From Gammaproteobacteria bacterium (lineage in GTDB: Bacteria > Pseudomonadota > Gammaproteobacteria > Eutrophobiales > Eutrophobiaceae): a DNA stretch of 64,000 bases. The notes under the pieces are model-generated. The model ran no database searches, had not been told where the DNA came from, and saw only the letters and a list, made by a program, of their open reading frames with translations. The translations under genes were made by a program, and so were the position numbers. The stretch is taken from NCBI GenBank assembly GCA_965215365.1, contig CBDCDS010000003.1:288001-352000 (forward strand), given 5' to 3'. Positions 1,694-21,189 of the stretch are shown piece after piece; the stretch's first letter is position 1; every line of letters begins with the position of its first letter.

Positions 1694-1882
1694 AAGATTC
1701 GCCTGTACCGGCTGGTCGGACATTCCTGGAAACGACCACTCCAAACAGGTGGCAGTGTAACCTATTTGCCGGTCGATGTCACTCTTGGGATCCTCTGAAT
1801 CAAGGATGTACAGCAGGGCAACCGCATACTTTTATATGTCAATGGTATCGTATAAAGGCGCCTCTAAAAATCAGCGGCACCC

Positions 1883-3979: not shown

Positions 3980-4067
3980 GTCAAATCCTCACCTGAACCC
4001 GCAGGGAGCGTATTCCAGCCGGTATCTCTCACTAGGTGACGCGCCCTCACCTGGTGAGAAATGCAGG

Positions 4068-5342
4068 CTAACCCAGCTCGTCACCGGTTGCACTCTCCGG
4101 GCTGTCGTCTTCTTCATAAGGAGTGGTGAAATCCTCGAACTCGGTGTCGGGCCGGTAGCCCGGGTGCAGCCGGCTGAGATCCCATTCGTTAATGGCGGCG
4201 CGCACCTTATAACGCATTCGTCCCTGGAAGCCTGCTCCCCCGGCGGTCGCATCGTAAGGTGGCGGCTGCCAGTCGTAAGCCCTGTTGTACAAACTACGCA
4301 ATGCCTCTACGGCAGCTTTCACGGTGTCGTCACTGGGCGGTTCAAGGGTCAGACAGTCCCGTTCCAGCAGCCGCATGCCGAGCTCGGCGCGGGCGCTGAT
4401 AACGCGGTATTTCGCGCTCTGCTCAAGTCTCGGTCGAACGTAGTCACTATCCTTTTTTTGTCCGTCCGGGCTGATGATGGCAGAGGCAAAATCCTCCGTC
4501 ACCGCGCCGACGACTACCAGGCCAGGATAACTTTCTCCCGGCGCGCGCCCCATCCAGCGCGCAATTTCCGCGTAGGAACGACCGCGCTGTAATATGGAAT
4601 ATGAACCGATCAACTCTATTTCATCCAGAAACACGACCCAACCCCGATAGCCAGCGCTTTTAATCAGTTCGACGGCGAACCGCAACCGCTGCACCGGCAG
4701 GTCAGCGGGTTTCGGCGCACGAAATTTATAGTGTTGCAATTGACCAACCTGTTTCAGCCCGTTACGAAGCCTAGCGAGCAGTATCCGGTCTCCCGCCCAG
4801 AAGGATTCGATCTCGCTGTTGAGCTCTAGGTCCCCCGAATGCTCATGCACGCTCCGGCTGGCGGGAAAGATCATGTTCAAAAGCCCGTCGGAAGCAGCGC
4901 CATCAGCCCAGCGGGAAAAGGCCGCGTATTCTTCGGATTCCGGTTTCATGGACAGCGCGAGTTCTTCGATAAAGCGTCCCCGCCGGTCCGGAATCCGACC
5001 GTTTTCGATGGCTGACGTAAATACCTTCCCCAAGTCATACAGGGGGGTTTCCTTGCTGATGGCCACCCTGCTGCAAACGAAGCCACGGGAGAGAGCAAGA
5101 TGCTCTAGGTGCGCCAGGAGATGGGACTTGCCCGAGCCGAAGTCCCCGGAAATCAACATTCCCCGAGCATCTGCCTCCCGGCTCCGGAGGTCCGCTACGC
5201 CATCCAGCATTCGGCTGAAATGCTCCTCTGCTTGCGGCTGGTTGCAGCCCAATGCGCGCACCGCCTCCCTGTTCGGTACGCCGTTGCGCAAGGCTTCCAC
5301 CGCCCGCCGGGCGGTAAGTTTTTCGTCTGTGCCGGCAGTCAT
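4068..5342 (-). CDS. DUF2791 / BrxD-like P-loop ATPase
   Basis: N-terminal ARRAVEALRNGVP, Walker A GDFGSGKSH, and GYRGWVVFLDEIE Walker B, typical of BREX BrxD/DUF2791 proteins. Confidence 0.85.
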   Translation of the reverse strand: MTAGTDEKLTARRAVEALRNGVPNREAVRALGCNQPQAEEHFSRMLDGVADLRSREADARGMLISGDFGSGKSHLLAHLEHLALSRGFVCSRVAISKETPLYDLGKVFTSAIENGRIPDRRGRFIEELALSMKPESEEYAAFSRWADGAASDGLLNMIFPASRSVHEHSGDLELNSEIESFWAGDRILLARLRNGLKQVGQLQHYKFRAPKPADLPVQRLRFAVELIKSAGYRGWVVFLDEIELIGSYSILQRGRSYAEIARWMGRAPGESYPGLVVVGAVTEDFASAIISPDGQKKDSDYVRPRLEQSAKYRVISARAELGMRLLERDCLTLEPPSDDTVKAAVEALRSLYNRAYDWQPPPYDATAGGAGFQGRMRYKVRAAINEWDLSRLHPGYRPDTEFEDFTTPYEEDDSPESATGDELG

Positions 5343-5354
5343 TGGCTCCGTTCT

Positions 5355-6317
5355 CTATGAGAGCCGTACCAGGGCCGCCACCGGGTTGGCGATGTTTCTG
5401 TCGCGCACATCATCCATCACCCGGGTGCGAAGAGCGGGGTAGATACCCCAGCCCCTCATCGATTGCTCATCGACGAACGTGTAATCGGTCAACGCCACCA
5501 GCAATGTTCCCGGCAAGCGGTCGGCGTCATCGATAAACTCCCTGAGCAGTTCGTAATGTTCTATGGTCATCGCCCGTGTATAGTAGCGCTCCCCGTCCTT
5601 CGGGTTGCGGTGCAGCGTGACGCGAGTGTTGTCCAGAACAATCAGCGTGCCTGAATATCCCGCGTAACGTACCCAATAAAGGGCTGATTCGATGAAATCG
5701 CGCGCGGTAGTGCGGTTGATGGGCGTGTGAATATGGAACGGCTTGATATTGCTTATTCGGGTGTTGGTGCCCGTCAGCCAGTCCAGCAACGGCTGTCCAG
5801 CGTACTCCCCCGTTGTCGCGCGCTCCCTCTCGAAATGGCAGAGATGGGTCATGGCCACCCGAAAGGCCTTGGCCATGTTTGCATTCCTGGTGACCTCGCG
5901 CTCCAAGGCCGGCCTCAACTCGAAGAGGACAGACTGCGCTTCCTCAATGTCGTTGGCGCGAGCCACCGCGTCGATGACGTTGGCCGCGCCGTTGGGGTCG
6001 ATGCCATCGACTCGATAGGCTTGCTTCGATAGCAGGCGCAGCACCACGCGGCGCGCAAGGAGTTGCCAATCGACCTGTGATGCCAGCATGAAAAAGAGGT
6101 CCTGGGGCATGTGGACGCGACAGGTGAGCGCATCCAGCGTCACAAACAGGTACTCCTGCTCGGCGCCAAGGGCTTGCAGCTTCTCTGCAAGCTCCGGCAT
6201 TCGTTCGTTGGCGGTGACTGCGAATTTGACGGTACCGCCGCCATCCTTGATGAACGTTGAGAGGTACTCCCGGTCTATATGGCGCACCCAGTCGGCGACC
6301 GGGATAGCTTGGGTCAT
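5355..6317 (-). CDS. DUF2791-like paralogue with a degenerate P-loop
   Basis: GGGTVKF occupies the Walker A position. It keeps AGYSGTLIVLDN, LREFIDD and YPALRTR, resembling DUF2791 C-terminal motifs. It lies 12 bp from the next gene. Confidence 0.7.
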   Translation of the reverse strand: MTQAIPVADWVRHIDREYLSTFIKDGGGTVKFAVTANERMPELAEKLQALGAEQEYLFVTLDALTCRVHMPQDLFFMLASQVDWQLLARRVVLRLLSKQAYRVDGIDPNGAANVIDAVARANDIEEAQSVLFELRPALEREVTRNANMAKAFRVAMTHLCHFERERATTGEYAGQPLLDWLTGTNTRISNIKPFHIHTPINRTTARDFIESALYWVRYAGYSGTLIVLDNTRVTLHRNPKDGERYYTRAMTIEHYELLREFIDDADRLPGTLLVALTDYTFVDEQSMRGWGIYPALRTRVMDDVRDRNIANPVAALVRLS

Positions 6318-7126
6318 CGGTCACTCCCGCTGAATCGGATTCCATAATACTCGGCGCTATCGCCCTGCGGCCCGATGAAGGAGAACAGGTCGCGGGAACG
6401 CCTGCGGGTCCCGGTAGATGAGGGGAAAGAGACCGTGGCGCCATTCCTGGTGCGACGCGGGCCGTTCGAATCCAGTATGTACAGGTCGCGGGCGAAGTCA
6501 TTGCGATCATAGTCGCGAGCACCCCCCGGGAGAGCTGTCATCAGTTTATAGATCCTGGCAAGCGGCACCACGCTGCCGCTCCCCGACGACAAGGGGTCTG
6601 CAGATGAGCTGTCCGAAATATCGGTGTAAACGCTGTACAAAGACTCAAGAAAACGTTGCGGGGGAAAGCCGCTGGATTTTTTCTGGTTCGCCAAAAGCAG
6701 GTCAACAAGATACGAGGGCCTGACCGCTACAACTCTTTTTTTATCCACTCTCACCGCACGTTCCGCCGCAAGTATCCTGACGATGGAAGGATAAGAGATC
6801 AAGAGTTCATCCTGCTCCTGAATTCTTAACCCCTTTTCGTCGGCAATGGTTTTGATAGCATCGATATACTGCTCACCGAAGAGCAGTTGTTCTTCCTCGT
6901 CCGAGAACGGCCAGCAGGAACCAGCGTTCGAGACCTCTTGGCGGAGCGCGGTCAAGCCCTCATTCAACTTCTCCTGGCAGCGCTTGATGTTTGCTACGTT
7001 GCCAGTCTGCGCGGCTTTCACCAACGCACGCGCCTGTGAGACTACATTGCTGGCGGACTTCTGCGCCGCACCGGCGGCCCTTTCAGTATCACGACAGGCT
7101 TGTTCGAAGCTGACCACTGCGCGCAC
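6314..7126 (-). CDS. Hypothetical protein with an N-terminal helical/coiled region, first conserved gene of the DUF2791-SNF2 operon
   Basis: 270-aa ORF with a 4-bp ATGA overlap with the next gene. Confidence 0.7.
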   Translation of the reverse strand: MRAVVSFEQACRDTERAAGAAQKSASNVVSQARALVKAAQTGNVANIKRCQEKLNEGLTALRQEVSNAGSCWPFSDEEEQLLFGEQYIDAIKTIADEKGLRIQEQDELLISYPSIVRILAAERAVRVDKKRVVAVRPSYLVDLLLANQKKSSGFPPQRFLESLYSVYTDISDSSSADPLSSGSGSVVPLARIYKLMTALPGGARDYDRNDFARDLYILDSNGPRRTRNGATVSFPSSTGTRRRSRDLFSFIGPQGDSAEYYGIRFSGSDR

Positions 7127-7144
7127 TACCGGAGATAACCCGAC

Positions 7145-7474
7145 TCAGTCGGTGCCGTACTTTGCCGGCTCTTCCGCCACGCGGCGACTGAGTAGCGCAT
7201 CGCTCAGCCCCCCCACTAGGCCTTCTAAGTGCGCCATGCGTTCGCGTAACTCGCCTATCGCTGCTCGCGTGGTTTTGAATTTTTCTTGCACGGCTTTGAA
7301 TTGTGCCTGTGTCTCTGCGCGCACGGCTTTGAATTGTGCCTGTGTCTCTGCGCGAAGGGTGCGCGTTTCTTCGCGTTGGGCGCGCTGGCCGTTGAGAATG
7401 AGGCCGGCGAGGGCGATGATGGCGCCGATGAGCGTGATGGCGGCGCTGATGATGGCGATGAGTTCCATGGACAT
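7145..7474 (-). CDS. Small protein with an N-terminal TM helix and coiled coil, copy 1 (109 aa)
   Basis: Hydrophobic MSMELIAIISAAITLIGAIIALAGLIL, RAETQAQFKAV x2, conserved tail LRERMAHLEGLVGGLSDALLSRRVAEEPAKYGTD, and a GGAG RBS. Confidence 0.85.
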   Translation of the reverse strand: MSMELIAIISAAITLIGAIIALAGLILNGQRAQREETRTLRAETQAQFKAVRAETQAQFKAVQEKFKTTRAAIGELRERMAHLEGLVGGLSDALLSRRVAEEPAKYGTD

Positions 7475-7524
7475 GTTCTGTCTCCTCCGTATCCGGTTTG
7501 GTACAACAGGTTATCGTGCTTTCC

Positions 7525-7552
7525 AGTGTAAGGCATCCGGGGGTGTTGTCAA
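7525..7552 (-). promoter_or_regulatory. Sigma70-like promoter carried by every full repeat unit
   Basis: Minus strand TTGACA-N16-TACACT here. It is TTGACA-N16-TATACT in copies 2-4 (e.g. 12739-12766). Confidence 0.7.
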
Positions 7553-7773
7553 TGGTTTTGTGGCGGGTAGAGAGTAGTCTCTGGTACGGGTGACGTGTTA
7601 TCATCAGGTTGTGTTGCCGGATTATACCCTTATACAGGCCATAGGCCTGACAGGCCGCCAGAATTGCGAAAACTACTACTTGCCATCTTGAAGGGAGAGG
7701 TGCCTTTCAATGTCTTTGCTGACCGGAAGCCTATCGAGGAGCACCTGGCCTGCACTCGCGCAGGGGGTAAACC

Positions 7774-10422
7774 ATGAGCGAACAACGTTATACGTATGCG
7801 CGTTTTTGGAAATGTGCCCTACAGGTTAACCCTCATGGTTACAATGAGAATTACCAGGGCAGGGATCATGGCATGGATGCCAGGGTCTATGCGGAGTCTC
7901 TGCGAGATGTCTGCCTGAGTAAAAATATCCAGGTTGTCGGATTTGCGGACCATGGTAGTGTTGCAGATGCGGAAGTTGCTCGCAAGATTCTGGTAGAAGC
8001 TGGTATCGTCGTTTTCCCAGGCTTCGAAGTGGCAACTACGGAGAAAGTTCACTGGGTCTGTCTTTTTCCGGAATCCACCACAGAGCAGCAACTGGAGCGT
8101 TACCTGGGTAAGTTGAATTTGACCAATACTCAGGATGGCGCTCGTCCATCCGACCTGGGCGGACAGAAACTGCTTGCGGCTGTTGAAAATTTAGGAGGGT
8201 TTTGCTATGCCGCTCATGTGACCTCAAATAGCGGTGTCCTGAAAGGCAAGTTCAACAACCTCTGGATAGATCCTCGACTGCGAGCAGCCCAGATCCCTGG
8301 CAAGGTTGATGACCTTCCGCAAGAATACAAGCTGATAGCGCAGAACAAAAATGTTGATTATCACCGTGATAATCGGGTTGCGCTGATTAACGCCAAGGAC
8401 ATCGCAGTACCAGATGACCTCCGTAAGCCTGGCGCAGCAACCTATATTAAGATGACTCGACCTTGCTTTTCATCATTTCTGATGGCATTTAAGGACCCGG
8501 AATCACGGATACGACTTACTGACGAAATGGTAGATCGTCACTACAGCAGGATAGACAGCATTACCATTGAAGGGGGTTACTTTGATGATCTGTCAGCGGA
8601 AATATCAGGTCACCTGAATGGAGTAATTGGAGGCCGAGGCACCGGAAAGTCCACGTTGGTGGAATGTATTCGATATGCGCTGGATGTACCACATAAAGGC
8701 GAAGAGGCAATCCGGCAGGGAGATCAGATCGTCAAGGAAAACCTCGGACGGGCAGGTGGGAGAGTGATCCTGAAACTCAGGTCAGCGTCTAACCACATGA
8801 AGAATTACACAATCATCAGGCGGTATGGCGAACCGCCGCGAGTGATAGATGAGCAGAATAACGAATCACGACTGCATCCCGGTAAGGATCTCCTTCCTGG
8901 TGTAGAGATATATGGTCAAAATGAAATTTACGAATTAGCGAAAAGTCCGGAAGCCTTAACTCGAGTATTGGACCGTTTCCTGCCGGAAAGTACAGGTCAG
9001 CAAGGTCGTCTCAATGCGGCGTATCGTAAACTCAAAGAAAACACTGAACGACTGACTAAGGCGCGGGAGCAAAAAGATGAGATCGAACAGCAAATCGCGC
9101 AGCTTCCCAAGCTCGAAGAACAGGTGAGACAATTTGAGGAACAGGGTTTCGAGGAAAAACTTAAACAAGTGCCTCTGCTGGAAAAGGAACGACAACTTGG
9201 CCCCAGGGTTCTGGATGAAGTAAAATTGGCACGAAATTCTCACCTCGGATTTGCGGAGTCTATCCCAGACCTGGTATTTCTTAGTGATAAAGCTCTTGAA
9301 GGATTGCCTCATGCAGATTTACTGCGAAACGGGCGACAGGTTTTGGAGTCATTGAATGACACTTTGCACAAGAAGCTTACTGAGATTGATCATGCGATAG
9401 GCGGGGCGGAGACGGCTCTTAATGCTATTGTTGGCGAACTTGATACGGCACTTAAGACAGCAGCAAGCCAATTAGAGCAAGAATTTTCCAAGCTCCCCGA
9501 AGTTGCCGGGAAGGAGGGCAAGGAAATCGGACGTGCTTATCAGCGGTTATTGCGGGAGATTGAACAAGTTAGGCCAGCACAGGCGCGGCTGAAAACGGTG
9601 CAGGCGCTTGTCAGAGAGTTGGAACAGAGCCGGCGCAATCTGCTGGGTGAAATATCGGATATGCGTAGCGCTCGCACAGGAGCAAAGCAGAAGGCTATAA
9701 AAAGCCTCAACAAGCGTCTCGCCGGTAAACTTCGGATTGAGCTTGTTCCAGACGGCTTGCGCAAGCCGCTACGGGAATTCCTGCAGGATTTACCAGGGAT
9801 TGGAGAACGCAAAACCCAATGGGTGGACAAGGCTCAGGATTTGACGATATTCGGCCTGGTCGCCGCTATTGCGGAAGGGAAGGAGGCGTTGCTCAGCAAA
9901 GAGTGGGGATTGACATCGGGGCTTGCCGATTCTTTGCTTCGCATGACACCCGGTGACCTGTGTAAGGTGGAAGGAATCGATCTGGAGGAACAAATCAGCC
10001 TAGAGCTCAATGTGTCTCACGCGGGCGAACAGTACAGGCCTTTGGAGCGTCTGTCAACAGGGCAACAATGTACAGCGATACTGCATTTGCTGTTACTCGA
10101 TAATCAAGACCCGCTGATCATGGATCAACCGGAGGATAATCTGGATAACGCCTTTATTGCCGAACGGATAGTTCAGGAACTGCGGGCAGCCAAGACGGAA
10201 CGGCAGTTCCTGTTTGCAACTCATAACGCAAATATTCCAGTGTTCGGTGACGCTGAATGGATAGGCGTGTGTATGGCGACTGATGATCAAGCAGAGATGC
10301 CGAATGAAGCCCAGGGCTCTATTGATATTCCGTCGATTCGTGATCATGTAGCAAGAATTCTGGAAGGTGGAAAGGAGGCATTCATGCAACGCAAAGAGAA
10401 ATACGGGTTTGATTACCAGTGA
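7774..10422 (+). CDS. PHP phosphoesterase fused to an SMC/ABC-type ATPase (TrlF / Ppl-like anti-phage protein)
   Basis: N-terminal ARFWKCALQVNP, FADH, PGFEV and AAHV PHP motifs. Walker A GGRGTGKST, a long coiled coil, then LSTGQQ, LIMDQPEDNLDN and FATHN. Confidence 0.85.
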   Translation: MSEQRYTYARFWKCALQVNPHGYNENYQGRDHGMDARVYAESLRDVCLSKNIQVVGFADHGSVADAEVARKILVEAGIVVFPGFEVATTEKVHWVCLFPESTTEQQLERYLGKLNLTNTQDGARPSDLGGQKLLAAVENLGGFCYAAHVTSNSGVLKGKFNNLWIDPRLRAAQIPGKVDDLPQEYKLIAQNKNVDYHRDNRVALINAKDIAVPDDLRKPGAATYIKMTRPCFSSFLMAFKDPESRIRLTDEMVDRHYSRIDSITIEGGYFDDLSAEISGHLNGVIGGRGTGKSTLVECIRYALDVPHKGEEAIRQGDQIVKENLGRAGGRVILKLRSASNHMKNYTIIRRYGEPPRVIDEQNNESRLHPGKDLLPGVEIYGQNEIYELAKSPEALTRVLDRFLPESTGQQGRLNAAYRKLKENTERLTKAREQKDEIEQQIAQLPKLEEQVRQFEEQGFEEKLKQVPLLEKERQLGPRVLDEVKLARNSHLGFAESIPDLVFLSDKALEGLPHADLLRNGRQVLESLNDTLHKKLTEIDHAIGGAETALNAIVGELDTALKTAASQLEQEFSKLPEVAGKEGKEIGRAYQRLLREIEQVRPAQARLKTVQALVRELEQSRRNLLGEISDMRSARTGAKQKAIKSLNKRLAGKLRIELVPDGLRKPLREFLQDLPGIGERKTQWVDKAQDLTIFGLVAAIAEGKEALLSKEWGLTSGLADSLLRMTPGDLCKVEGIDLEEQISLELNVSHAGEQYRPLERLSTGQQCTAILHLLLLDNQDPLIMDQPEDNLDNAFIAERIVQELRAAKTERQFLFATHNANIPVFGDAEWIGVCMATDDQAEMPNEAQGSIDIPSIRDHVARILEGGKEAFMQRKEKYGFDYQ

Positions 10423-11675
10423 CCAAGACTGAATTGCTGGAACTGATAGCGAATGGAGAGAACTCCGGAACGGAGTTCAAGCGCGATGATCTTCGCCCCG
10501 AGCAGTTGGCTAAAGAAGTTGTAGCGTTGGCTAACTTTCAGGGTGGCCGCATTCTTTTAGGGGTCGATGATGACGGAACGATCACTGGGGTTCAACGCGC
10601 TGACCTTGAGCGCTGGGTGATGGATACTGTCTTCGGCCGCTATGTTCATCCCATAATCATCCCATTTTACGAAGAAGTACAGATCGATGAAAAGTACCGT
10701 GTCGCCGTTGTAACCATAAGTCAAGGAACTACCAAGCCCTATGTAGTCCGTAACCGTGAGCGTGAAGACGTCTATATTCGGGCTGGCAGTACATCGCGCT
10801 TAGCGACGCGTGAGCAACAGGCTCGATTGTACGCACTCGGTGGCATGTTCCACGTAGAACTACTTCCCGTCTCAGGCAGCAAACTGACTGATCTTAGTCT
10901 GGACCGATTGAAAAATTACTTATTGGCCATTGTGGGTGACAAGAAATCGCCCGTGGATAACGAGGAATGGCACGAGCGCTTGTGTGGTTTGGGCTTTATG
11001 GTTGAACGCGATGACGGCCCTGCTATCTGCACAATCGCCGGTCTGCTCTTGTTTGGACATTCTCCTCGACGACTCCTTCATCAGGCCGGCATCCGTTGGA
11101 TGGCATTCAAAGGCAATGATAAAAGCTATAAAGCGCTGGATGATCAACTTATTGATGGACCACTGGTTGCCCTGCGAAAACCATCAGATGGGGGTAGGAG
11201 TGACATTACAGAAAACGGGTTACTGGAGAATATTATTCGGGTGATGCGACCATTTGTTTCAGAAGAACCAAGTGAATTAGAGGATTCATTACGACGAGAA
11301 CGTAATTGGCTGTACCCGGCAGATGCACTACGTGAGGCTATCATCAATGCGGTTGCCCACCGTGATTGGACTCGCTATGAGGAGATTGAGATTACACTGT
11401 ACGCAAACCGACTCGAGGTCTTGAGCCCTGGTGCGCTACAGAATTCGATGACAGTAGAAAAAATGTTAGCTGGCCAACGTTCACCACGCAACTCTTTGAT
11501 TGTTCAGGTTTTACGCGATTACGGTTACGTAGATGCAAGAGGCATGGGGGTAAGAAATAAAATTATTCCTCTCTTATTGGAGCAAAATCAGACAAAACCG
11601 GAATTCATAGCGACTGAGGATTACCTCAGGCTTGTCATGTATATCAGAAAGCCAAATGCCGAGACTGGAGATTGA
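10419..11675 (+). CDS. AlbA_2/Schlafen domain protein with a RecG-C-like (HATPase_c_4) domain
   Basis: GENSGTEFK, EVVALAN..GG.ILLGVDDDG, ALREAIINAVAHRD, LSPG and SPRN. GTGA overlap with the upstream gene. Confidence 0.88.
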   Translation: MTKTELLELIANGENSGTEFKRDDLRPEQLAKEVVALANFQGGRILLGVDDDGTITGVQRADLERWVMDTVFGRYVHPIIIPFYEEVQIDEKYRVAVVTISQGTTKPYVVRNREREDVYIRAGSTSRLATREQQARLYALGGMFHVELLPVSGSKLTDLSLDRLKNYLLAIVGDKKSPVDNEEWHERLCGLGFMVERDDGPAICTIAGLLLFGHSPRRLLHQAGIRWMAFKGNDKSYKALDDQLIDGPLVALRKPSDGGRSDITENGLLENIIRVMRPFVSEEPSELEDSLRRERNWLYPADALREAIINAVAHRDWTRYEEIEITLYANRLEVLSPGALQNSMTVEKMLAGQRSPRNSLIVQVLRDYGYVDARGMGVRNKIIPLLLEQNQTKPEFIATEDYLRLVMYIRKPNAETGD

Positions 11676-11713
11676 AACACAATTTCAGTTGGCGCTGTAT
11701 TCTCCCGGTTCTT

Positions 11714-12003
11714 CCGCTTCAACCAACGGTAGTAGGTCGCCCTCGACCAACCTACTGCTGCCAGTGCCGTCGCCTCACCACACCCATCCTCGCGTAACGT
11801 CGCAACTAATTCCAACTGCTGCAAACGACCGAGCGCGTCAGCATCGGTAGTATCATCCACGCGCCAACTGCGATATGATTTCACCCGCTTACCTTTTGAT
11901 CTGCATCGGGTAGTCCTCCTGTGTCAATTAGTTGAGATTAATTCACACACAGACTACCCGATTTCTTTATCTAAAGAGTCTCACTTGTTTCTGAACCCGG
12001 ACA
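11714..12003 (-). mobile_element. Truncated IS481-family copy (left end plus frameshifted transposase 5' end)
   Basis: Reverse complement of about 21190-21479, including the TIR tgtccgggttcagaaacaagtgagactc. Confidence 0.9.
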
Positions 12004-12070
12004 AAGTAGCGCTATGGCAGTTCTGTTCCCTTGGGGGAGAGGTCGGGGTGAAGGGATGAAATACTCCTTA

Positions 12071-12836
12071 AAATAAAACAGGGGCTACATCAGCAGCGGG
12101 CGCTGCCGGGTAGCCGTTGGGTTTGTTGACTTTCGTGAACGGGAAGTTGGGGTTGCTGCTTGAAATTCAGACTGCAACCGTTAGCTGTGGCTTGGCTCAG
12201 TCGGTGCCGTACTTTGCCGGTTCTTCCGCCACGCGGCGGCTGAGTAGCGCATCGCTCAGCCCCCCCACCAGGCCTTCTAAGTGCGCCATGCGTTCGCGTA
12301 ACTCGCCTATCTCTGCTCGCGTGGTTTTGAATTCTGCCTGTGTCTCTGCGCGTTGGGCTTGCATTTCTTCGCGTTGGGCCTGGAATTGTGCCTGTGTCTC
12401 TGCGCGTTGGGCTTGCATTTCTGCGCGCACGGCTTTGAATTCTGCCTGTGTCTCTGCGCGTTGGGCTTGCATCTCTGCGCGCACGGCTTTGAATTCCGCC
12501 TGTGTCTCTGCGCGTTGGGCTTGCATTTCTGCGCGCACGGCTTTGAATTCTGCCTGTGTCTCTGCGCGAAGGGTGCGCGTTTCTTCGCGTTGGGCGCGCT
12601 GGCCGTTGAGAATGAGGCCGGCGAGGGCGATGATGGCGCCGATGAGCGTGATGGCGGCGCTGATGATGGCGATGAGTTCCATAGACATGTTCTGTCTCCT
12701 TTGTATCCGATTAGGTACAACGGGTTATCGTGTTTTCCAGTATAGGGTATCCGGGGGTGTTGTCAATGGTTTTTTGTTGGGTTTTGTGAGTTTTCTCACA
12801 AAACTGTGAAGGTTTTGCTGTTCGGGCTGGGGCAAT
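12071..12836 (-). repeat. Repeat unit copy 2 (promoter-ORF-terminator)
   Basis: Runs from aaataaaacaggggctac to gctgttcgggctggggcaat and matches copy 4 end to end. Confidence 0.93.
12197..12688 (-). CDS. Small TM + coiled-coil protein, copy 2 (163 aa)
   Basis: Same termini as copy 1 with an expanded RAETQAEFKAV-RAEMQAQ module (x3). Confidence 0.85.
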   Translation of the reverse strand: MSMELIAIISAAITLIGAIIALAGLILNGQRAQREETRTLRAETQAEFKAVRAEMQAQRAETQAEFKAVRAEMQAQRAETQAEFKAVRAEMQAQRAETQAQFQAQREEMQAQRAETQAEFKTTRAEIGELRERMAHLEGLVGGLSDALLSRRVAEEPAKYGTD

Positions 12837-12860
12837 TTGGTGAGATCTGCGGGCTAATTG

Positions 12861-12888
12861 TTGACAAATAAAGAAATAGCGGTACGAT
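12861..12888 (+). promoter_or_regulatory. Sigma70-like promoter of the NYN gene
   Basis: TTGACA (12861-66), 16-bp spacer, TACGAT (12883-88). Confidence 0.65.
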
Positions 12889-12894
12889 GGCACC

Positions 12895-12967
12895 TGTTCC
12901 GGGCCTTTGGCAGTAGGCTTTCCCGAGTGTTACAGGAGGAAAGCCAAACCCAAAGGCCATTTTGTTT
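12895..12967 (+). ncRNA. Putative structured leader RNA upstream of the NYN nuclease
   Basis: Nested perfect stems ggcctttgg/ccaaaggcc (12902-10/12950-58) and ggctttcc/ggaaagcc (12916-23/12938-45), followed by attttgttt. Confidence 0.55.
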
Positions 12968-12991
12968 CAACGTCAGTAAAGGAATAGAATC

Positions 12992-13636
12992 ATGTCTGTC
13001 GCAATTCTTGTAGATGCAGCCTTTTTCATCAAGCGATTCCCTGCGATTTATCCAGGACTTGATAAAAGCAACCCTGAAGTGGTTGGCAAAACTTTATGTT
13101 CCATGTGTATGGAGCATGTGAAAGGAGAAGTCTTGTACAGGATACTGGTCTACGACTGCAAACCATTGAATAGAAAAAGCGCGCATCCGTTAACTGGAAG
13201 ACCGGTTGATTTTTCAAAAATACCGGGGGCGCTATTTCGTGTGGAGCTCCATAAATTTTTGAAAAAACAACGAAAGGTTGCGCTTAGATTGGGAGAGCTT
13301 ACGTCGACGGGAGCCTGGAAGATCAAGACATCTGTAACCCGTAAGCTCTTGAGAAAGCAAATCAATATCAGCGATTTGTCAAACATGGATGTTGAATTTG
13401 ATGTAAAACAGAAAGGCGTGGATATGCGTATCGGGTTAGATATTGCATCATTGTCTTTGAAAGGGATGGTTAATCAGATCATATTGATTTCAGGGGATGG
13501 CGATTTTGTTCCGGCAGCGAAACTGGCACGACGTGAAGGGATTGACTTTGTTCTTGACCCGCTCTGGTCCACATTCATTAGTGAAGGGCTTTACGAACAT
13601 ATAGACGGACTTAAATCAGTTGTACCCCGCCCGTAA
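12992..13636 (+). CDS. NYN (LabA/DUF88, PIN-fold) domain ribonuclease
   Basis: AILVDAAF, YRILVYD, KQKGVDMRIGLDI and LISGDGDFVPAAKLARREG. Lower GC than the flanks. Confidence 0.92.
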   Translation: MSVAILVDAAFFIKRFPAIYPGLDKSNPEVVGKTLCSMCMEHVKGEVLYRILVYDCKPLNRKSAHPLTGRPVDFSKIPGALFRVELHKFLKKQRKVALRLGELTSTGAWKIKTSVTRKLLRKQINISDLSNMDVEFDVKQKGVDMRIGLDIASLSLKGMVNQIILISGDGDFVPAAKLARREGIDFVLDPLWSTFISEGLYEHIDGLKSVVPRP

Positions 13637-14204
13637 AACAGGGGCTACGTCAGCAGCATGCGCTGCCGGGTAGCCGTTGGGTTTGTTGACTTTCGTGAAC
13701 GGGAAGTTGGGGTTACTGCTTGAGATTTAGACTGCAACTGTTGGTTATGGCTTGGCTCAGTCGGTGCCGTACTTTGCTGGCTCTTCCGCCACGCGGCGGC
13801 TGAGTAGCGCATCGCTCAGCCCCCCCACCAGGCCTTCCAAGTGCGCCATGCGTTCGCGTAACTTGCCTATCTCTGCTCGCGTGGTTTTGAATTCTTCTTG
13901 CACGGCTTTGAATTGGGCTTGTGTCTCTGTGCGCTGGGCTTGCATTTCTTCGCGTTGGGCCTGGAATTCTGCCTGTGTCTCTGCGCGAAGGGCGCGCGTT
14001 TCTTCTCGCTGGGCGCGTTGGCCGTTGAGAATAAGGCCAGCGAGCGCGATGGTGGCGCTTATGATTGCGATGAGTTCCATGGACATGTTCTGTCTCCTTC
14101 GTATCCGGTTTGGTACAACGGGTTATCGTGTTTTCCAGTATAGGGTATCCGGGGGTGTTGTCAATGGTTTTTTGTTGGGTTTTGTGGGGTTTGTCACAAA
14201 ACTG
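13634..14204 (-). repeat. Repeat unit copy 3
   Basis: Begins at the NYN stop codon (taaaacaggggctac) and ends at cacaaaactg, followed by a MITE end. Confidence 0.93.
13757..14086 (-). CDS. Small TM + coiled-coil protein, copy 3 (109 aa)
   Basis: Same family, with the TM segment 7 aa shorter and a different module combination. Confidence 0.85.
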   Translation of the reverse strand: MSMELIAIISATIALAGLILNGQRAQREETRALRAETQAEFQAQREEMQAQRTETQAQFKAVQEEFKTTRAEIGKLRERMAHLEGLVGGLSDALLSRRVAEEPAKYGTD

Positions 14205-14407
14205 CCAACCCGCATATCTCACCAAGTGATGCGAATATCGCCTCAACCTGCGCGCAGTAAGGGCTGGATGGCAATACCTGGGCGAAGCTCGGGGAGGCGC
14301 TGCCGTTTTCGCAAGACGAAAAAAGTTTTGTCGATCAGGTAATATGGATGTTATAGTTTGATCGTCACCGGCTTGGTGTACGTAATGCTTTACGTGGGGA
14401 TTTAATA

Positions 14408-14635
14408 ATGTCGGGATTTGACTACGAAAAGGAAATAATCGGCTACTATAAGCTCTGGCTTGGGGTGCTGCTGGTCACGGACATCAGTTTGTGTGGCTGG
14501 CTCGCAAACAACTATCTTTCGGCGCCACAGTGGTTAGTGACCGGGGCTGCTCTGTTGGTCTTTCTGACGACAGGTTTCGTCGTGTTTATTGGTTCAAGCA
14601 CCGAAAGTTTCATTAAGAAACTAAAGAGGAAATAG
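14408..14635 (+). CDS. Small two-TM membrane protein
   Basis: KEIIGYYKLWLGVLLVTDISLCGWL, then a second hydrophobic helix and a basic tail. Confidence 0.7.
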   Translation: MSGFDYEKEIIGYYKLWLGVLLVTDISLCGWLANNYLSAPQWLVTGAALLVFLTTGFVVFIGSSTESFIKKLKRK

Positions 14636-14637
14636 CT

Positions 14638-14724
14638 ATGGATATGTTTGTCGCACTTATGATGGTGAGCGTCGGCTTGGTGTTTTGTTACATGGCCTAC
14701 AGGGCCACCCGGAATTTGAAGTAA
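14638..14724 (+). CDS. 28-aa single-TM peptide (not in the ORF track)
   Basis: MDMFVALMMVSVGLVFCYMAYRATRNLK*, starting 2 bp after the previous stop, with a GAGG RBS. Confidence 0.5.
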   Translation: MDMFVALMMVSVGLVFCYMAYRATRNLK

Positions 14725-14812
14725 CTGCAGAACTTACCCGTTTTACGCCCAGCTGTCTTACCGAGGTTAGCGGGAACTACCGTGTCCGGTGGGAAAATAA
14801 ACCACTCCCTGC

Positions 14813-15510
14813 AATAAAACAGGGGCTACGTCAGCAGCGGGCGCTGCCGGGTAGCCGCTGGGTTTGTTTACTTCTGTGGACGGGAAGGCTGGGTTGCTGC
14901 CGGGATTCAGACTGCAACCGTTGGCTGTGGCTTGGCTCAGTCGGTGCCGTACTTTGCTGGCTCTTCCGCCACGCGGCGGCTGAGTAGCGCATCGCTCAGT
15001 CCCCCCACCAGGCCTTCCAAGTGCGCCATGCGTTCGCGTAACTCGCCTATCTCTGCTCGCGTGGTTTTGAATTCTTCTTGCACGGCTTTGAATTGGGCTT
15101 GTGTCTCTGTGCGCTGGGCTTGCATTTCTTCGCGTTGGGCCTGGAATTGTGCCTGTGTCTCTGCGCGTTGGGCTTGCATCTCTGCGCGCACGGCTTTGAA
15201 TTCCGCCTGTGTCTCTGCGCGCTGGGCTTGCATCTCTGCACGCTGGGCTTGCATTTCCTCTCGTTGGGTGCGCGTTTCTTCTCGTTGGGCGCGTTGGCCG
15301 TTGAGAATGAGGCCAGCGAGCGCGATGGTGGCGCTTATGATGGCGATGAGTTCCATAGACATGTTCTGTCTCCTTCGTATCCGGTTTGGTACAACGGGTT
15401 ATCGTGTTTTCCAGTATAGGGTATCCGGGGGTGTTGTCAATGGTTTTTTGTTGGGTTTTGTGAGTTTTCTCACAAAACTGTGAAGGTTTTGCTGTTCGGG
15501 ATGGGGCAAT
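14813..15510 (-). repeat. Repeat unit copy 4
   Basis: Runs from aataaaacaggggctac to gctgttcgggatggggcaat. Confidence 0.93.
14937..15362 (-). CDS. Small TM + coiled-coil protein, copy 4 (141 aa)
   Basis: Same family with another module combination. Confidence 0.85.
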   Translation of the reverse strand: MSMELIAIISATIALAGLILNGQRAQREETRTQREEMQAQRAEMQAQRAETQAEFKAVRAEMQAQRAETQAQFQAQREEMQAQRTETQAQFKAVQEEFKTTRAEIGELRERMAHLEGLVGGLSDALLSRRVAEEPAKYGTD

Positions 15511-15524
15511 GGGACGGGGGGTAC

Positions 15525-15573
15525 AAATAAAACAGGGGCTACGTCAGCAGCATGCGCCGCCGGGTAGCCCCTG
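15525..15573 (-). terminator. Intrinsic terminator of the RTX gene, also the partial fifth copy of the repeat 3' segment
   Basis: caggggctac/gtagcccctg stem with a minus-strand U tract. The same sequence follows small-ORF copies 2-4. Confidence 0.75.
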
Positions 15574-15620
15574 GGTTCGTTTACTTCCGTGAACGGGAAG
15601 TTTGGTTACTACTTTACTGA

Positions 15621-18600
15621 TCAGGCCACCAAGATGAAACCACCTTCACCTGCTTCGAACACCTCCGGATCATTACCACTAGCAATATTAAATATCTTCA
15701 GGCTGGTGAGTTTGCCATCACGACCAACTTCACCTACACCCCCCAGACTGTTAACACCATCCAAGATGATTTTCCCGCCGCCGACTGAGGTCAAATCGAT
15801 CCTGACGTTGGTACCGAACACATCAATCAGATTCATCAAATCCGCCTCTTTGAGGTTGTAGGCAGACAGATCAATGGCGTCATTTTCAAGGCTGGTAAGA
15901 CCGGAAATAACATCGTCTCCGTTTCCATCGGCAGGGCTGAACACAAAGGTATCCTGACCAGCGCCGCCATCCAGTTGGTCATCCCCAGCACCGCCATTGA
16001 TCGTGTCATCGCCGGAACCACCGGTAATTTTGTCATTGCCCGCATCGCCGTGCAGCTCGTTATTACCGCTTGCGGCACGTATAATATCGTTGCCATCGCC
16101 GCCGTACAGCTTATCGTCGCCAGCGCCGCCAATCAACATATCATCACCCCCCATGCCTTTGAGAACATTGGGGTTGTCATCGCCGGTCAGTGTGTCTTTC
16201 TGGTTGGAACCGGTCAGGTTCTCGATACTGCCCAGCCTATCGCCAGCAGCGCCATTAGTCTCGGGGTTTTCATCGACATCAAAAGGAGAACCGGGGTTCA
16301 TGAGCATAGACGGGACACCTTCTGCATCAATACCATTACCATCACCCGCCGTGATCGTAGGAGTATCCACTGTACCGAATACAAACGGCTCTCCTTTGGT
16401 ACCCATGCCTGTAACCTGCTTTGTATCATTATCGGTCACCAAGCTCACGGTAACACCTACCATAGAGGCCTCGTAGGATACGGTATCGCGGCCGCCATCA
16501 CCCTGAATCAGGTCAGCGCCAGAGCTGGCGATGAAAATGTCATCATGTTCGGAACCCCAAACCAACTCGATGTTGTTCAAGATATCGCCGTCGGCATCGC
16601 CGCGGGTGCCTCTACCAGTAGCCAGATTAACCGTGATGCCAGCGGTTGCGTTCTTATAGACGGCCCAGTCGATGGAAGCGGGCTTCATTTCGCCTGGATC
16701 AACGGTACCGTTTCCATCGGCATCACCAGGCACCATGTTGTTCCTTTCATCTTTATCCTCACCACCGTCCAGCATGTCGGCGCCCGGACCGCCGGTCAGA
16801 CGGTCGGAGCCGGCGCCGCCCCGGAGGGTATCATTGCCAGCGCCACCGTTCAGGTTATTGTCGTGGTCATTACCGGTCAGGCTGTCGGCGTACTTGGAAC
16901 CGGTGATGTGCCGGAACGTCGCGACATCAACCGTGTTGTTCGGATCACGTCGCGTCGGTGCGCTTTCTTCGTAAGTCACAATAGTATCGCCTTCGGCATG
17001 ACCGCCGGCAGCGCTGGCCGTGGCCAGGTTTATCGTGACACCTGCGTTAGACGTGGCGTAGAGCAGGGTGTTGGCCTCGAAATTCGGATTGCCCTTGTCA
17101 TCTTCAGCATCGCCGGCAGCATCGCCGGCATCATTGGCAGGTGTATAGCCACCGTCCAATTCATCCGCGCCAGCACCGCCTTCAATCGTATCGTTACCAC
17201 CGGCACCGTCTATATCGTCATCACCGTCCATCCCCCACAGCTTGTTAGCGACCATGTTACCGGTTAAATCATCACCGTAGGCAGAACCTCTGATGTTTTC
17301 AAAGTTGGTGGCTGTATCGCCGGAGGCGTGGCCTCTGGACGCAATCGCAGCAGCACCATCACCATCTCGCAGCTCGACCCTGACCCGGGTATCGGAATGG
17401 CGGTAGGAGAGAGTGTCTTCGCCCTCACCACCATCCAAGGTATCTCCACCTTCGTGACCTTCGATTTCGTTATCATGACGATTGCCCGTCAGGGTATCAT
17501 CGTCCTGAGAACCGATGATGTTTTCAATATTTTTCACAGTACCACGGGCTGCGCCCCCGACAGTGATATTACCTGCTAACAGATCCACCGTAAGACCCTC
17601 ATCTAACAACGCGAAAGAGACAGTATCAACCGCGTTCGGGTCTCCCTCCGCTTCAGTTTCTGAAGGATCCATAACCATAACCCAACCATCAACTTTATCC
17701 CCAGGCCTAGCATGAATCATATCGCTGCCAGCGCCGCCATAGTACGTGTTAGTGCCTCTATTACCCCACAAATGGTCATTGCCAGGGCCGCCGAAGAGCA
17801 TATCATCACCGGCACCGCCGAAGATTCTGTCGTTGCCCCTCCCACCATAAAGCGTATCGTCATTGTCGATACCAGAGTTCGTACTGCGCGCATCGGTCGG
17901 ATTCGGGCCGCCGTAAATCGTGTCATCGCCATCGCCGCCCCGGATGGTGTTATCCCTGAAATCACCGGCCAGGATATCGTTGTAGGCCGACCCGGTCAGG
18001 TCTTCAACATCAGCCAGCATGACGGAGGTGGAATCCCCGTCGCTGTTGGTATAGTCAGTCTCAGCCGTCAGGCTCCAAGTATCGCCTTCGGCGTCACCCA
18101 ACATGGCCTGCCCACTGTGCAGGCGCACTATGACACCCATCGGGGACATGCTATAGGAAGCTATATCGCTCCCGGCGCCACCGGTCAGCATGTCGGCGCC
18201 GGGGCCGCCTTCGAGGGTGTCATCGCCGTCGCCACCGGTCAGCATGTCGGCGCCGGGGCCGCCCCAGAGCTTGTCATCGCCCCGGGCGCCGTCCAGCATG
18301 TCATCCCCATCAAGCCCCCACAGTTTATTGACTCGTCTACTACCGGTGAGCACGTCGTCATAGGCAGAACCGATGATGTTCTCAATCCGGTCATTGCCCT
18401 TGTCAACGAGGGTATCGCCGTCGGCATCGCCGCCGCGCGCCGCGCCACTGGTCAGATTGATGGTGACGCCCACCATCGAACCGACATAGGTGATGGTGTC
18501 TTCACCATCACCCCCGCTGAGCGCGTCAGCCCCCGGACCGCCTGACAGCAGGTCATCGCCATTCCCGCCATTCAGCTTGTCATCGCCGCCCATGCCGTAC

Positions 18601-19163
18601 AAGGAATCGTCACCGTTCAGACCGTTGAGCGTATCGTTCTGAGCGCCGCCCTTGATTTTGTCGTCTTCATCTGTGCCCGCCAGAGTCCCACCGACAGTCG
18701 TCGCTGGCACCTTCTTCTCATTCAACGTCACCGTGTAGTCAGCAGACGTCATAATGACATTTGTACCCGGGTTGCCCGTATAGGCACTCACTGCGATAAA
18801 GTACTTCTGCGTGCCACTGCCGGCTTCGGGCGTAAACTTAAGCTTAGGATGCAGTGCGGTTGAGACGCCGTTGGAGCCCACAACATCATCTTCCATCTTG
18901 ATTTCGCCGCCCTTTCCATCGTACAGCGTCAAAATGGTATCGGTAAGGGTATCACTACCCTCTATGGAAAACGTGTACTCATTACCCTCGCTCAGCTCGA
19001 CCGCAATCCAGTCCACATCGTGCTTGGAGGTCAGGGTGCCCTTAACCGTGCTTGCCACTGATTTACCATCAAACGGCCCGTTCGGCGGCATGAAGCTAAG
19101 CTCAGTGCTCGTATCTGCGGGCGCATCCTTGCCCATCAACTTGCTTTCGTCTCGGTCTGGCAT
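15621..19163 (-). CDS. RTX / hemolysin-type calcium-binding protein with an N-terminal PPC-like domain (probable type I secretion substrate)
   Basis: Many GGxGxDxL nonapeptides, GVTINL..G...GGDA.GD repeats, and a DVDWIAVEL PPC-like segment. AGGAG RBS before the ATG at 19163. Confidence 0.92.
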   Translation of the reverse strand: MPDRDESKLMGKDAPADTSTELSFMPPNGPFDGKSVASTVKGTLTSKHDVDWIAVELSEGNEYTFSIEGSDTLTDTILTLYDGKGGEIKMEDDVVGSNGVSTALHPKLKFTPEAGSGTQKYFIAVSAYTGNPGTNVIMTSADYTVTLNEKKVPATTVGGTLAGTDEDDKIKGGAQNDTLNGLNGDDSLYGMGGDDKLNGGNGDDLLSGGPGADALSGGDGEDTITYVGSMVGVTINLTSGAARGGDADGDTLVDKGNDRIENIIGSAYDDVLTGSRRVNKLWGLDGDDMLDGARGDDKLWGGPGADMLTGGDGDDTLEGGPGADMLTGGAGSDIASYSMSPMGVIVRLHSGQAMLGDAEGDTWSLTAETDYTNSDGDSTSVMLADVEDLTGSAYNDILAGDFRDNTIRGGDGDDTIYGGPNPTDARSTNSGIDNDDTLYGGRGNDRIFGGAGDDMLFGGPGNDHLWGNRGTNTYYGGAGSDMIHARPGDKVDGWVMVMDPSETEAEGDPNAVDTVSFALLDEGLTVDLLAGNITVGGAARGTVKNIENIIGSQDDDTLTGNRHDNEIEGHEGGDTLDGGEGEDTLSYRHSDTRVRVELRDGDGAAAIASRGHASGDTATNFENIRGSAYGDDLTGNMVANKLWGMDGDDDIDGAGGNDTIEGGAGADELDGGYTPANDAGDAAGDAEDDKGNPNFEANTLLYATSNAGVTINLATASAAGGHAEGDTIVTYEESAPTRRDPNNTVDVATFRHITGSKYADSLTGNDHDNNLNGGAGNDTLRGGAGSDRLTGGPGADMLDGGEDKDERNNMVPGDADGNGTVDPGEMKPASIDWAVYKNATAGITVNLATGRGTRGDADGDILNNIELVWGSEHDDIFIASSGADLIQGDGGRDTVSYEASMVGVTVSLVTDNDTKQVTGMGTKGEPFVFGTVDTPTITAGDGNGIDAEGVPSMLMNPGSPFDVDENPETNGAAGDRLGSIENLTGSNQKDTLTGDDNPNVLKGMGGDDMLIGGAGDDKLYGGDGNDIIRAASGNNELHGDAGNDKITGGSGDDTINGGAGDDQLDGGAGQDTFVFSPADGNGDDVISGLTSLENDAIDLSAYNLKEADLMNLIDVFGTNVRIDLTSVGGGKIILDGVNSLGGVGEVGRDGKLTSLKIFNIASGNDPEVFEAGEGGFILVA

Positions 19164-19629
19164 CTCTTTTTCTCCTGTGCTAATCAGTAGAAGTAAACGA
19201 ACTTTTTGGCGCATTCATGCGGTAGATCGCATTATTACATACTTTTGAAAAAAAACAATCACTGTTCACAAATATCGCAATTTAGCGGCTATAAGTCAAC
19301 ACAAATCTCTAAATTTTGTCAATGGGGCTCCCTTACGGTGTGTTGCCCATGGTACAACTTTTTTCGATCTGTCGCAATATACCGGTGTTCACGGAATATG
19401 TCAACTGCATAATAAAAAAAAGTTGCAGGCATGTCAACATATTTGCCCGCCGAACTTCCCCATGACCTGTAATCTTCGCAGTGTGCCAAGTTTATCTGGT
19501 GTTGTCAACAAAATAATAGAAAAAATATTTTGTTGTCAAGTCTTTTGGTAGTTTACCTGAAATTCTTTTGTAAATGTACGGCAAAACAACCTTATTCTGA
19601 CCATTCTCACCCATATCGGGGCGCTTGTC

Positions 19630-19765
19630 CAGAACTTTCGGATTCTGGAGTTTCCCTTTGCTTTTTCACCCCGTGTACATTAGTATTGTTACGAGCCGGC
19701 TGTCCATGGCCGGCTGCTGCTGTTAACTATCAACCAAACCGATAAGGAGGAATCTGTCATGGAAA
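19630..19765 (+). repeat. About 135-bp upstream region duplicated at 20564-20699
   Basis: cagaactttcgga...gataaggaggaatctgtcatggaaa occurs twice, nearly identical. Confidence 0.92.
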
Positions 19766-20433: not shown

Positions 20434-20692
20434 GCGATACGCAGCCGTTAACGTTGATCCGGCGCAGCAGGGCGCGCAATCAAGTAAGAAACGGCCTGAC
20501 TTCTTATTGGTGCTTGATATGCTTATACAACGTCGAAACGCACTTTATTGAGAGGCGGAACAGCAGAACTTTCGGACTCTGGAGTTTCCCTTTGCTTTTT
20601 CACCCCGTGTACATTAGTATTGTTACGAGCCGGCTGTCCATGGCCGGCTGCTGCTGTTAACTATCAACCAAACCGATAAGGAGGAATCTGTC

Positions 20693-21085: not shown

Positions 21086-21189
21086 GCGCGGCCTGTTTGC
21101 GGTGAACGGTTACGGTGAACAGGCAAGCATCCCGGTCATTCACATTGTGGACATCACGTAGATTTTTTGGAAAAACTTGTATGGGAGTG

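Follow-up and report, generated by a model that had tools for sequence, protein, structure and literature searches.

A Tandem Array of Small Genes Behind an RTX Gene

The locus described here lies in a window of 64,000 nucleotides (the whole stretch analyzed, positions 288,001 to 352,000 of contig CBDCDS010000003.1 in assembly GCA_965215365.1) from the genome of an uncultured gammaproteobacterium of the Eutrophobiaceae. It consists of a gene for an RTX protein followed by tandem copies of one small gene, with genes of defense type in the gaps between the copies. A repeat search placed four units at approximately 7144–7568, 12071–12836, 13631–14204, and 14812–15520, and three repeat families cover them: one of 300 nt (four copies, ungapped identity to the reference copy 62–100%), one of 268 nt (four copies, 71–100% identical), and one of 81 nt (four copies, 88–100% identical), the last with an additional fifth, partial copy at 15525–15605. 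The four direct repeats and the partial fifth reported in a preliminary description of this DNA are thus real, the fifth being a terminator only. It belongs to the gene that heads the array, which encodes an RTX calcium-binding repeat protein of 1197 aa (15621–19214, minus strand; Pfam HemolysinCabind, 6e-84, in 15 stretches, with a weak PPC domain). The terminator of this gene (15525–15605, minus strand) is 88% identical to the terminator family of the units and folds into a hairpin with a U-run at -38 kcal/mol (z -6.05).

Every unit holds one small gene on the minus strand. Copy 1 (7145–7474, 109 aa) has neither an upstream palindrome nor a terminator, and its homology to the other copies ends at its stop codon. 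Copy 2 (12197–12688) encodes the 163-aa protein with the most internal repeats and is followed by a terminator at 12071–12151; copy 3 (13757–14086, 109 aa) and copy 4 (14937–15362, 141 aa) have terminators at 13631–13711 and 14812–14892, respectively. Promoters of the form TTGACA-N16-TATACT, read on the minus strand, precede copies 4, 3, and 2 (15440–15413, 14164–14137, and 12766–12739), and copy 1 has TTGACA-N16-TACACT (7552–7525). A ribosome-binding site, GGAGGAG or GAAGGAG, stands ahead of each small-gene ATG, so that the promoter and GGAG-type site proposed earlier for each full copy were recovered for all four. The terminators proposed for copies 2–4 were likewise found; together with that of the RTX gene, these hairpins with a U-run range from -23 to -38 kcal/mol (z -2.7 to -6.1). 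Within the small genes, Tandem Repeats Finder detected 54-nt (18-aa) tandem repeats in 1.9–4.8 copies, and the length differences among the small-gene copies mainly reflect the number of these repeats. The array units are 80–96% alike.

When the repeat was searched against the rest of this genome (G000), two further such arrays came to light, on contigs C1 and C2, each behind an RTX gene, and the whole genome holds 11 copies of the terminator. The end of C2 (16602–17427) and the start of C1 (1–826) overlap by 826 identical bases and are probably contiguous.

Upstream of the -35 box, copies 2 and 4 carry the palindrome TGTGAG-N4-CTCACA (12785–12800 and 15459–15474); copy 3 has a degenerate form of it and copy 1 has none. 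A search of the genome for this pattern returned eight sites, seven of which are the true palindrome and stand immediately ahead of the -35 box of a small coiled-coil gene (the two in the window, C1:33934, C2:3318, C2:5201, C2:5907, and C3:1649594); the eighth is an unrelated variant. The palindrome looks like the operator of a small regulon. Two of the genes that it precedes on C2 are apolipoprotein-like and have a different promoter. These coiled-coil open reading frames (ORFs), at C2:5272–5730 and 5978–6469 (locus L032), extend the C2 array; their terminator and palindrome are as in the small genes, and promoter and protein differ.

Short-read evidence for the assembly was drawn from Logan contigs, whose depths are not copy numbers. 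In the contigs of runs X12, X13, and X16, each unique segment of the array is matched with 0 or 1 differences, and the contigs of X12 and X13 extend approximately 30–100 nt into the flanking units, by which each junction of cargo and repeat is confirmed. Joints with sides shorter than about 30 nt at the edges of repeats or insertion sequences (IS), for example 7513>13635 and 12003>14207, were treated as artifacts of the repeat graph.

Foreign Genes in the Gaps

The gaps of the window are occupied by genes on the plus strand with a guanine-plus-cytosine content of 0.42–0.51, compared with 0.58 for the genome. The description of these genes as lower in this content and opposite in strand therefore holds; their supposed uniqueness does not, given that the third cargo is also found on C2.

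The first cargo is a cassette of two genes (7573–11684, plus strand; its limits are the extent of homology in run X1, introduced below). Its first gene (7774–10422) encodes a TrlF/Ppl-like ATPase with PHP and SMC-like domains. It passes the cut-off of the NCBIfam TrlF family (NF045780; 527.8 against 350 bits, over residues 8–878) and falls short of that of Ppl (NF042955; 188.2 against 1000 bits); PADLOC reports Ppl at 8e-36, the best-matching stretch being the C-terminal residues 752–875. The second gene (10419–11675) encodes a Schlafen protein with the Pfam domains AlbA_2 and HATPase_c_4. The cassette is followed by a remnant of an IS481-like element on the minus strand (11714–12003, 290 nt), comprising the left end and the first 57 transposase codons. 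The remnant is 94% identical to 21190–21479, and over 57 aa its protein matches the transposase at 21288–22313 with 96% identity. A full element of this source family lies at 21190–22322 on the plus strand (Pfam rve/HTH; 26 matches longer than 1000 nt in the genome of 2.7 Mb).

The second cargo is a gene for a 214-aa NYN-domain protein (12992–13636; Pfam NYN 2.4e-8, PADLOC NYN 1.2e-5, phrog_5783 7e-72). It has a promoter-like site of its own at 12861–12888, and its stop codon, which had been placed correctly at the start of copy 3, falls in the T-run of the copy 3 terminator. The third cargo comprises a 75-aa ORF with two transmembrane segments (14408–14635) and a 28-aa transmembrane ORF (14638–14724), neither of which matched a family in Pfam, PADLOC, NCBIfam, or PHROGs. 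C2 encodes a second copy of the 75-aa protein with 100% identity; its other homologues in the genus lie away from arrays. On C1, the two gaps of the array hold a DUF5615 gene and VapBC (a VapC–MazE-like pair).

The repeats, which the preliminary description had also termed expression units, are not such units for the cargo; their promoters face away from it and cannot drive it.

The closest full-length homologues within the genus are 43% identical for TrlF and 48% for NYN, and in the flanks fetched for 18 such TrlF or NYN loci the small gene was never found beside them. We then considered 80 metagenome loci with TrlF relatives at 46–75% identity (L090–L169). The Schlafen gene stands directly downstream in 73 of the 80 (as a 33-residue stub in two, and with several pairs cut by contig ends), and the two ORFs overlap or nearly touch; not one of the 80 has the small gene, NYN, the 75-aa protein, or a 270-aa protein encoded behind copy 1 (see below). 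From the pairing in 73 of 80 loci and the absence of the small gene from all of them it follows that TrlF and Schlafen form a self-contained two-gene module from outside. The cargo is foreign in origin. Like Ppl and TrlF, the first gene of this module encodes an ATPase of approximately 880 aa that combines a PHP domain with an SMC/ABC-like ATPase; the differences from Ppl are the score below the NCBIfam cut-off and the regular Schlafen AlbA_2 and HATPase_c_4 partner. A search of the literature available returned no paper on TrlF/Ppl-like and Schlafen proteins as a pair.

Insert Edges and the Search for Dedicated Machinery

To locate the edges of the inserts, we compared them with a compact spacer of 258 nt. 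On the terminator side, the edge falls at spacer positions 92–96, the end of the T-run, in every insert; homology to the spacer is regained at position 141, 111, or 174 on the promoter side. Beyond the terminator, the insert junctions have no common motif. A motif scan of 7000–15700 for attC-like R''/R' core pairs 40–130 nt apart found none, against a mean of 1.4 in 200 shuffles. No Phage_integrase domain was detected by Pfam among the filtered ORFs of at least 100 aa and three shorter ones of window positions 1–44 kb, where the sole recombinase is the IS481-like rve transposase, and no tRNA or Rfam family was found. Site-specific insertion was rejected on the junctions without a common motif and the lack of attC-like pairs, and the varying promoter-side edges argue against it as well.

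These searches bear out the earlier report of neither integrase nor attC sites. The array is not an integron: it has no integrase, no attC-like sites, and no co-oriented cassettes with a common promoter. The inserts appear to occupy the one place where they disrupt nothing, the terminator and the promoter being preserved by selection. Weak terminator-like sites are present on the plus strand of the same hairpins, which may terminate transcription on both strands and so stop the convergent cargo as well.

Recombination Between Units

A tree of the C-terminal coding part and the terminator placed all eight copies tested from this genome, taken from three loci, in one clade (99/99); they do not pair with the copies of the orthologous loci in the nearest relative (G006). 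Between loci, the arrays are 90–96% identical in DNA, whereas the adjacent RTX proteins are 48–49% identical. Because the copies of this genome form a single clade and the arrays are far more alike than the RTX proteins beside them, the units evolve in concert.

The segment at 14100–15100, which runs from the copy 3 promoter through the 75-aa and 28-aa cargo and the copy 4 terminator into the 3' half of copy 4, is nearly identical to C2. In 20 bins of 50 nt, 18 are at 100%, one at 98%, and one at 96%; outside the tract identity drops to 52–92% on both sides. Such a pattern suggests a recent event of conversion or crossover that began and ended within units and carried the cargo along.

A different arrangement was recovered from run X1, which comes from another study and is approximately 94% identical. 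In one contig of 4.6 kb, a decayed NYN gene (232 nt deleted, cut at 13399) is followed by 30 unrelated bases, then by 7573–11684, and then by a copy of the terminator. Neither a unit separating NYN from TrlF nor the IS remnant is present in the contig, and the order of the two cargoes is the reverse of that in the window. Parts of the locus without coverage in X1 (4000–7200 and most of the RTX gene) were not counted as absent.

Arrays and Orthologous Loci in Relatives

In the nearest relative, G006, the arrays are compact and head-to-tail, with five, four, and two to three units behind an RTX gene, and hold no cargo. Their spacers of 125–385 nt consist of the terminator, approximately 35 nt, the palindrome, and the promoter, and behind one of these arrays lie genes of type I secretion (ABC and HlyD). 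Arrays directly behind RTX genes were found in six genomes (G000, G006, G014, G001, G020, and G018), with the RTX identity given by Pfam for 11 large ORFs. In a survey of 28 loci of the genus that identified RTX ORFs by a crude motif test, 13 have an RTX ORF with the small gene on the same strand at most 1.5 kb downstream, one more has a transposase between the two, and 14 have no RTX ORF.

Comparison of orthologous loci locates the variable content. Window positions 1–1787 are 94% identical to a region of G006 that adjoins an RTX gene with one unit, and nothing there matches window positions of approximately 1790–14620. The C1 array and its G006 orthologue share flanks (hopanoid and Mla genes) at 90–96% identity; DUF5615 and VapBC are present in G000 only. 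Identical content and order among relatives, the outcome that would have spoken against variable cargo, was therefore not observed. The longer gaps in other species of the genus contain transposases (IS110 and DDE), ankyrin proteins, an integrase, or further coiled-coil ORFs, or have no recognizable content. Among the gap ORFs scanned in these species (35 of 62; short ORFs, those with an existing annotation, and those of L088, a mirror-image duplicate locus, were set aside), no recognized defense genes were found.

Since the right flank of the window array (19215–21088) has its orthologue beside a different RTX locus of G006, the arrays mark breakpoints of chromosome rearrangement. The synteny break with G006 adjoins the IS481-like element: homology ends near 21140 and resumes at 23125. 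Tyrosine recombinases lie beside RTX/small-gene arrays in G006 and G014 (L045, 275–1243; L048, 12210–13193); these are generic and not of IntI type by NCBIfam, scoring 47–50 bits against the cut-off of 220 of the XerA/integron-integrase model.

The Small Protein Family

Of 630 candidates, 546 are homologues of the small protein at E<=0.001, and all of these are named only "hypothetical protein". In an alignment of 38 homologues, the hydrophobic N-terminus and the C-terminus, which is of the ERMAHLEGL type, are conserved, the middle is variable, and ten positions are invariant. AlphaFold2 predicts a single helix over residues 3–100 (mean predicted local distance difference test score 86.3). No curated family reached its cut-off in Pfam, PADLOC, NCBIfam, or PHROGs, where the matches were sub-threshold coiled coils only, and a profile search of the PDB gave a designed coiled coil as the best match (E 8e-4). 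DUF2730 (Mu-like releasin, PF10805) was rejected as the family, with a best score of 23.1 bits that lies below the Pfam gathering cut-off of 24.9; a feature score of 0.85 for DUF2730 likeness in the protein Atlas, which otherwise gave unnamed clusters, is a lead only.

The family is present in 18 of 22 other genomes of the genus, and a single-protein query found no match at E<=1e-5 in 18 genomes outside it. A motif scan of one genome per species also detected the family, mostly in single copy, in metagenome-assembled genomes (MAGs) labelled Alphaproteobacteria, Binatia, Acidobacteriota, Gemmatimonadota, Acidimicrobiia, and Dehalococcoidia. This patchy spread over MAGs labelled as at least six phyla suggests horizontal transfer. 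At 59 loci (L191–L249) the neighbors are heterogeneous, unrelated housekeeping genes, and a motif test found RTX ORFs at one of the 59, a locus that belongs to this same genus. Because the family outside the genus stands mostly single and among housekeeping genes, the unit is an autonomous gene of a widespread family that is tied to RTX genes in this genus alone. Our best guess, held with low confidence, is that the small protein is a membrane-anchored coiled-coil stalk tied to RTX or type I secretion biology in the genus.

The BrxD-like/SNF2 Genes and the Wider Accessory Region

Four co-directional genes on the minus strand (1883–7126) begin 18 nt past the stop codon of copy 1. By Pfam, PADLOC, and NCBIfam they encode a 270-aa protein without a family, two BrxD-like (DUF2791) ATPases, and an SNF2 helicase, and are probably a further defense system. 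The copy 1 promoter would read into them, so that they may be transcribed together with the small gene. One of the ATPases, of 424 aa, has a weak PADLOC match to SngB of Shango (1.4e-7). A decayed copy of the four genes, at 89–92% DNA identity, lies near an RTX gene and a divergent small gene in G008; the set was not found in G006, where the flank at window positions 1–1787 alone matched.

A few kb beyond the RTX gene lie further genes of toxin–antitoxin or nuclease type, for two PIN proteins and an HNH protein (24793–25209, 28329–28697, and 30890–31264), and the accessory region is therefore wider than the array. A repeat of approximately 134 nt at window positions of about 30490–30623 has dozens of copies in G006, G008, and G020, and a repeat of 27–30 nt (1813–1840) has many copies in G020.

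Interpretation of the Array

The array is a defense island or hotspot: defense-type genes of foreign composition are clustered in it, and its content varies at orthologous loci. We consider it likely that it arose as a tandem array of a lineage-specific small gene, prone to recombination, whose gaps have come to hold foreign defense genes, and thus constitutes a defense islet. The anatomy of the units is shown, as are the conversion tract, the foreign origin of the cargo, and the absence of cargo from the arrays of G006. The native element comprises an RTX gene and, behind it, one to five autonomous units; each contains, in order, a palindromic operator-like site, a sigma-70 promoter, a ribosome-binding site, the ORF, and an intrinsic terminator. 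The encoded protein has a hydrophobic N-terminal anchor and one long helix, which takes in a varying number of 18-aa repeats and closes with the conserved ERMAHLEGL-type segment. In this genome, foreign genes occupy the stretch from the terminator of one unit to the promoter of the next, where they presumably break nothing, and may have arrived by ordinary illegitimate or IS-assisted insertion; the BrxD-like/SNF2 operon is fused behind copy 1. Because the units are 80–96% alike, ordinary homologous recombination and gene conversion act on them, and on this reading such recombination homogenizes the copies, has copied one cargo between arrays, has reshuffled the order of cargo between related populations, and has made the arrays breakpoints of rearrangement.

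Several observations weigh against this account. On the terminator side, every insert begins no more than a few bases from where the T-run ends, and a site-directed process could also yield such edges. Each of the six gaps between copies is filled with extra genes here (the window has three of these gaps, C1 two, and C2 one), against none of seven measured in G006, which is a striking concentration for passive insertion. The cargo of the window is all convergent with the upstream unit, and VapBC on C1 is co-directional. The X1 arrangement is known from its one short-read contig of 4.6 kb. Short-read contigs break inside every unit, so that the order of the segments depends on the assembly, and X12, X13, and X16, in which the stretch is the same, may themselves derive from the source sample. 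The survey of RTX genes was a crude motif count, with a Pfam check on L031, L032, and L045–L049 only.

The units, which recur at each RTX-linked array of the genome and in related strains living alongside, may instead form a true cassette platform that works without an integrase, in which genes that have landed gain homology arms and can be copied by ordinary recombination across arrays and strains, and selection for the shuffling of defense genes would help to keep the arrays. We think this rather unlikely; if it were so, the 1-kb tract and the permuted order of NYN and TrlF would be snapshots of that traffic.

Taken strictly, the preliminary description amounts to a competing explanation: a selected, integron-like platform without an integrase, whose units act as homology arms that travel with single cassettes and let them be routinely excised, amplified, or swapped, with the terminators as insulators. 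The tract that carries one cargo between two arrays, the concerted evolution of the units, the permuted order in X1, and the filling of all six gaps of the genome, largely with genes of defense or toxin–antitoxin type, speak for such a platform, as do the insert edges abutting the terminator and the weak plus-strand terminator-like sites. However, any tandem paralogs would recombine alike, the nearest relative keeps its arrays free of cargo, the gene stands single and free in other phyla, and the gaps in other species of the genus contain IS elements, ankyrin genes, or nothing recognizable and no recognized defense genes. Circles and amplification left no trace in the contigs, which by their nature cannot reveal them. 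We therefore judge this platform unlikely. The preliminary description had regarded the repeats as anchors for recombination, and in that much it is supported by the single clade, the 1-kb tract, and the X1 order; a device built around cargo is not what the autonomous genes and the cargo-free G006 arrays indicate.

Alternatively, the small proteins could be immunity or accessory factors of the upstream RTX proteins, after the manner of orphan immunity arrays, with the defense genes as hitchhikers. The position of the arrays directly behind RTX genes in all six genomes, the type I secretion ABC and HlyD genes after one array, the membrane anchor of the small proteins, and the fast divergence of the RTX proteins (paralogues 42–62% identical, with the C1/C2 pair at 81%) would all suit this. 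Yet the copies are homogenized and have not diversified in step with their RTX partners, no RTX coding fragments lie between the units, and outside the genus the family stands alone among housekeeping genes, the one RTX neighbor in 59 loci being from this genus. The toxin nature of these RTX proteins lacks any support. As an explanation of the array, we find the immunity role improbable.

It is very improbable that the small gene is the working partner of the adjoining divergent cargo, for example as the membrane effector or sensor of a two-part defense module. Three divergent pairs with approximately 300 nt between them (copy 1/TrlF, copy 2/NYN, and copy 3/75-aa ORF), the fusion of copy 1 to the BrxD/SNF2 operon 18 nt away, and the sub-threshold likeness to phage membrane coiled-coil proteins (DUF2730) speak for a partnership; against it, one small protein would need unrelated partners, and the G006 arrays are without any cargo. 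We rejected this role on the 18 in-genus and 80 metagenome loci, none of which has the small gene.

That the array is an assembly artifact stringing together dispersed paralogous loci, as the three such loci in the genome, the short-read contigs breaking in every unit, and the 826-base overlap of C2 and C1 might suggest, is scarcely credible, given that the window lies within a 2.63-Mb contig, the units can be told apart at 80–96% identity, three runs cover the unique segments with 0 or 1 differences (X12 and X13 reaching approximately 30–100 nt into the units), and the same type of array is found in relatives with single-contig genomes.

Comparison with Known Systems

In sedentary chromosomal integrons, short repeated elements alternate with single accessory genes, among them toxin–antitoxin and defense cargo. 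The array shares with them the linear alternation of repeats and accessory genes and the type of cargo. It differs in having no IntI, no attI, and no attC-like sites, and in repeats that are protein-coding genes of 0.4–0.8 kb; moreover, the cargo of the window lies on the plus strand and the promoters of the units on the minus strand, NYN has its own promoter-like site, and the insert edges vary.

Arrays of orphan toxin and immunity cassettes lie downstream of cdiA, rhs, or maf genes. As in these contact-dependent inhibition (CDI), Rhs, and maf arrays, segments of repeated homology follow a large gene for a secreted protein, and recombination between repeats reshuffles the content. In contrast to them, there are no 3' coding fragments of the large gene between the units, the 81-nt terminator alone being common to both in the self-comparison and the comparison with C1 and C2. 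The units here consist of one conserved small gene that is homogenized, and the cargo is of phage-defense or toxin–antitoxin type.

The nearest parallel in layout concerns the core defense hotspots of Pseudomonas aeruginosa, which as outlined in PMC10250203 are integrase-free and flanked by conserved genes, with transfer by homologous recombination through the flanks proposed. Both have variable defense content of lower guanine-plus-cytosine content at a fixed place, with no evident mobile-element machinery in the hotspots as they are outlined there (PMC10250203). Their flanks are two single-copy core genes, whereas here a tandem repeated small gene offers several slots (PMC10250203, for the hotspots). 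Here the same homology also stands at three loci of one genome, and the copying of an insert within the genome is directly visible. The array works like such integrase-free hotspots, with the difference that its homology is a tandem, multi-locus repeat.

Implications

Two by-products of this analysis may merit further study. The first is the uncharacterized family of small helical proteins, with its 546 homologues and its tie to RTX genes in this genus; the second is the tightly conserved pair of TrlF/Ppl-like and Schlafen genes. For the array as a whole, the finding means that defense and toxin–antitoxin genes can gather and move without a mobile-element enzyme where dispensable, nearly identical genes offer both harmless slots and repeated homology. 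Should such traffic be frequent, it would help to explain how immunity is renewed in the genomes of uncultured bacteria, in which defense genes abound.

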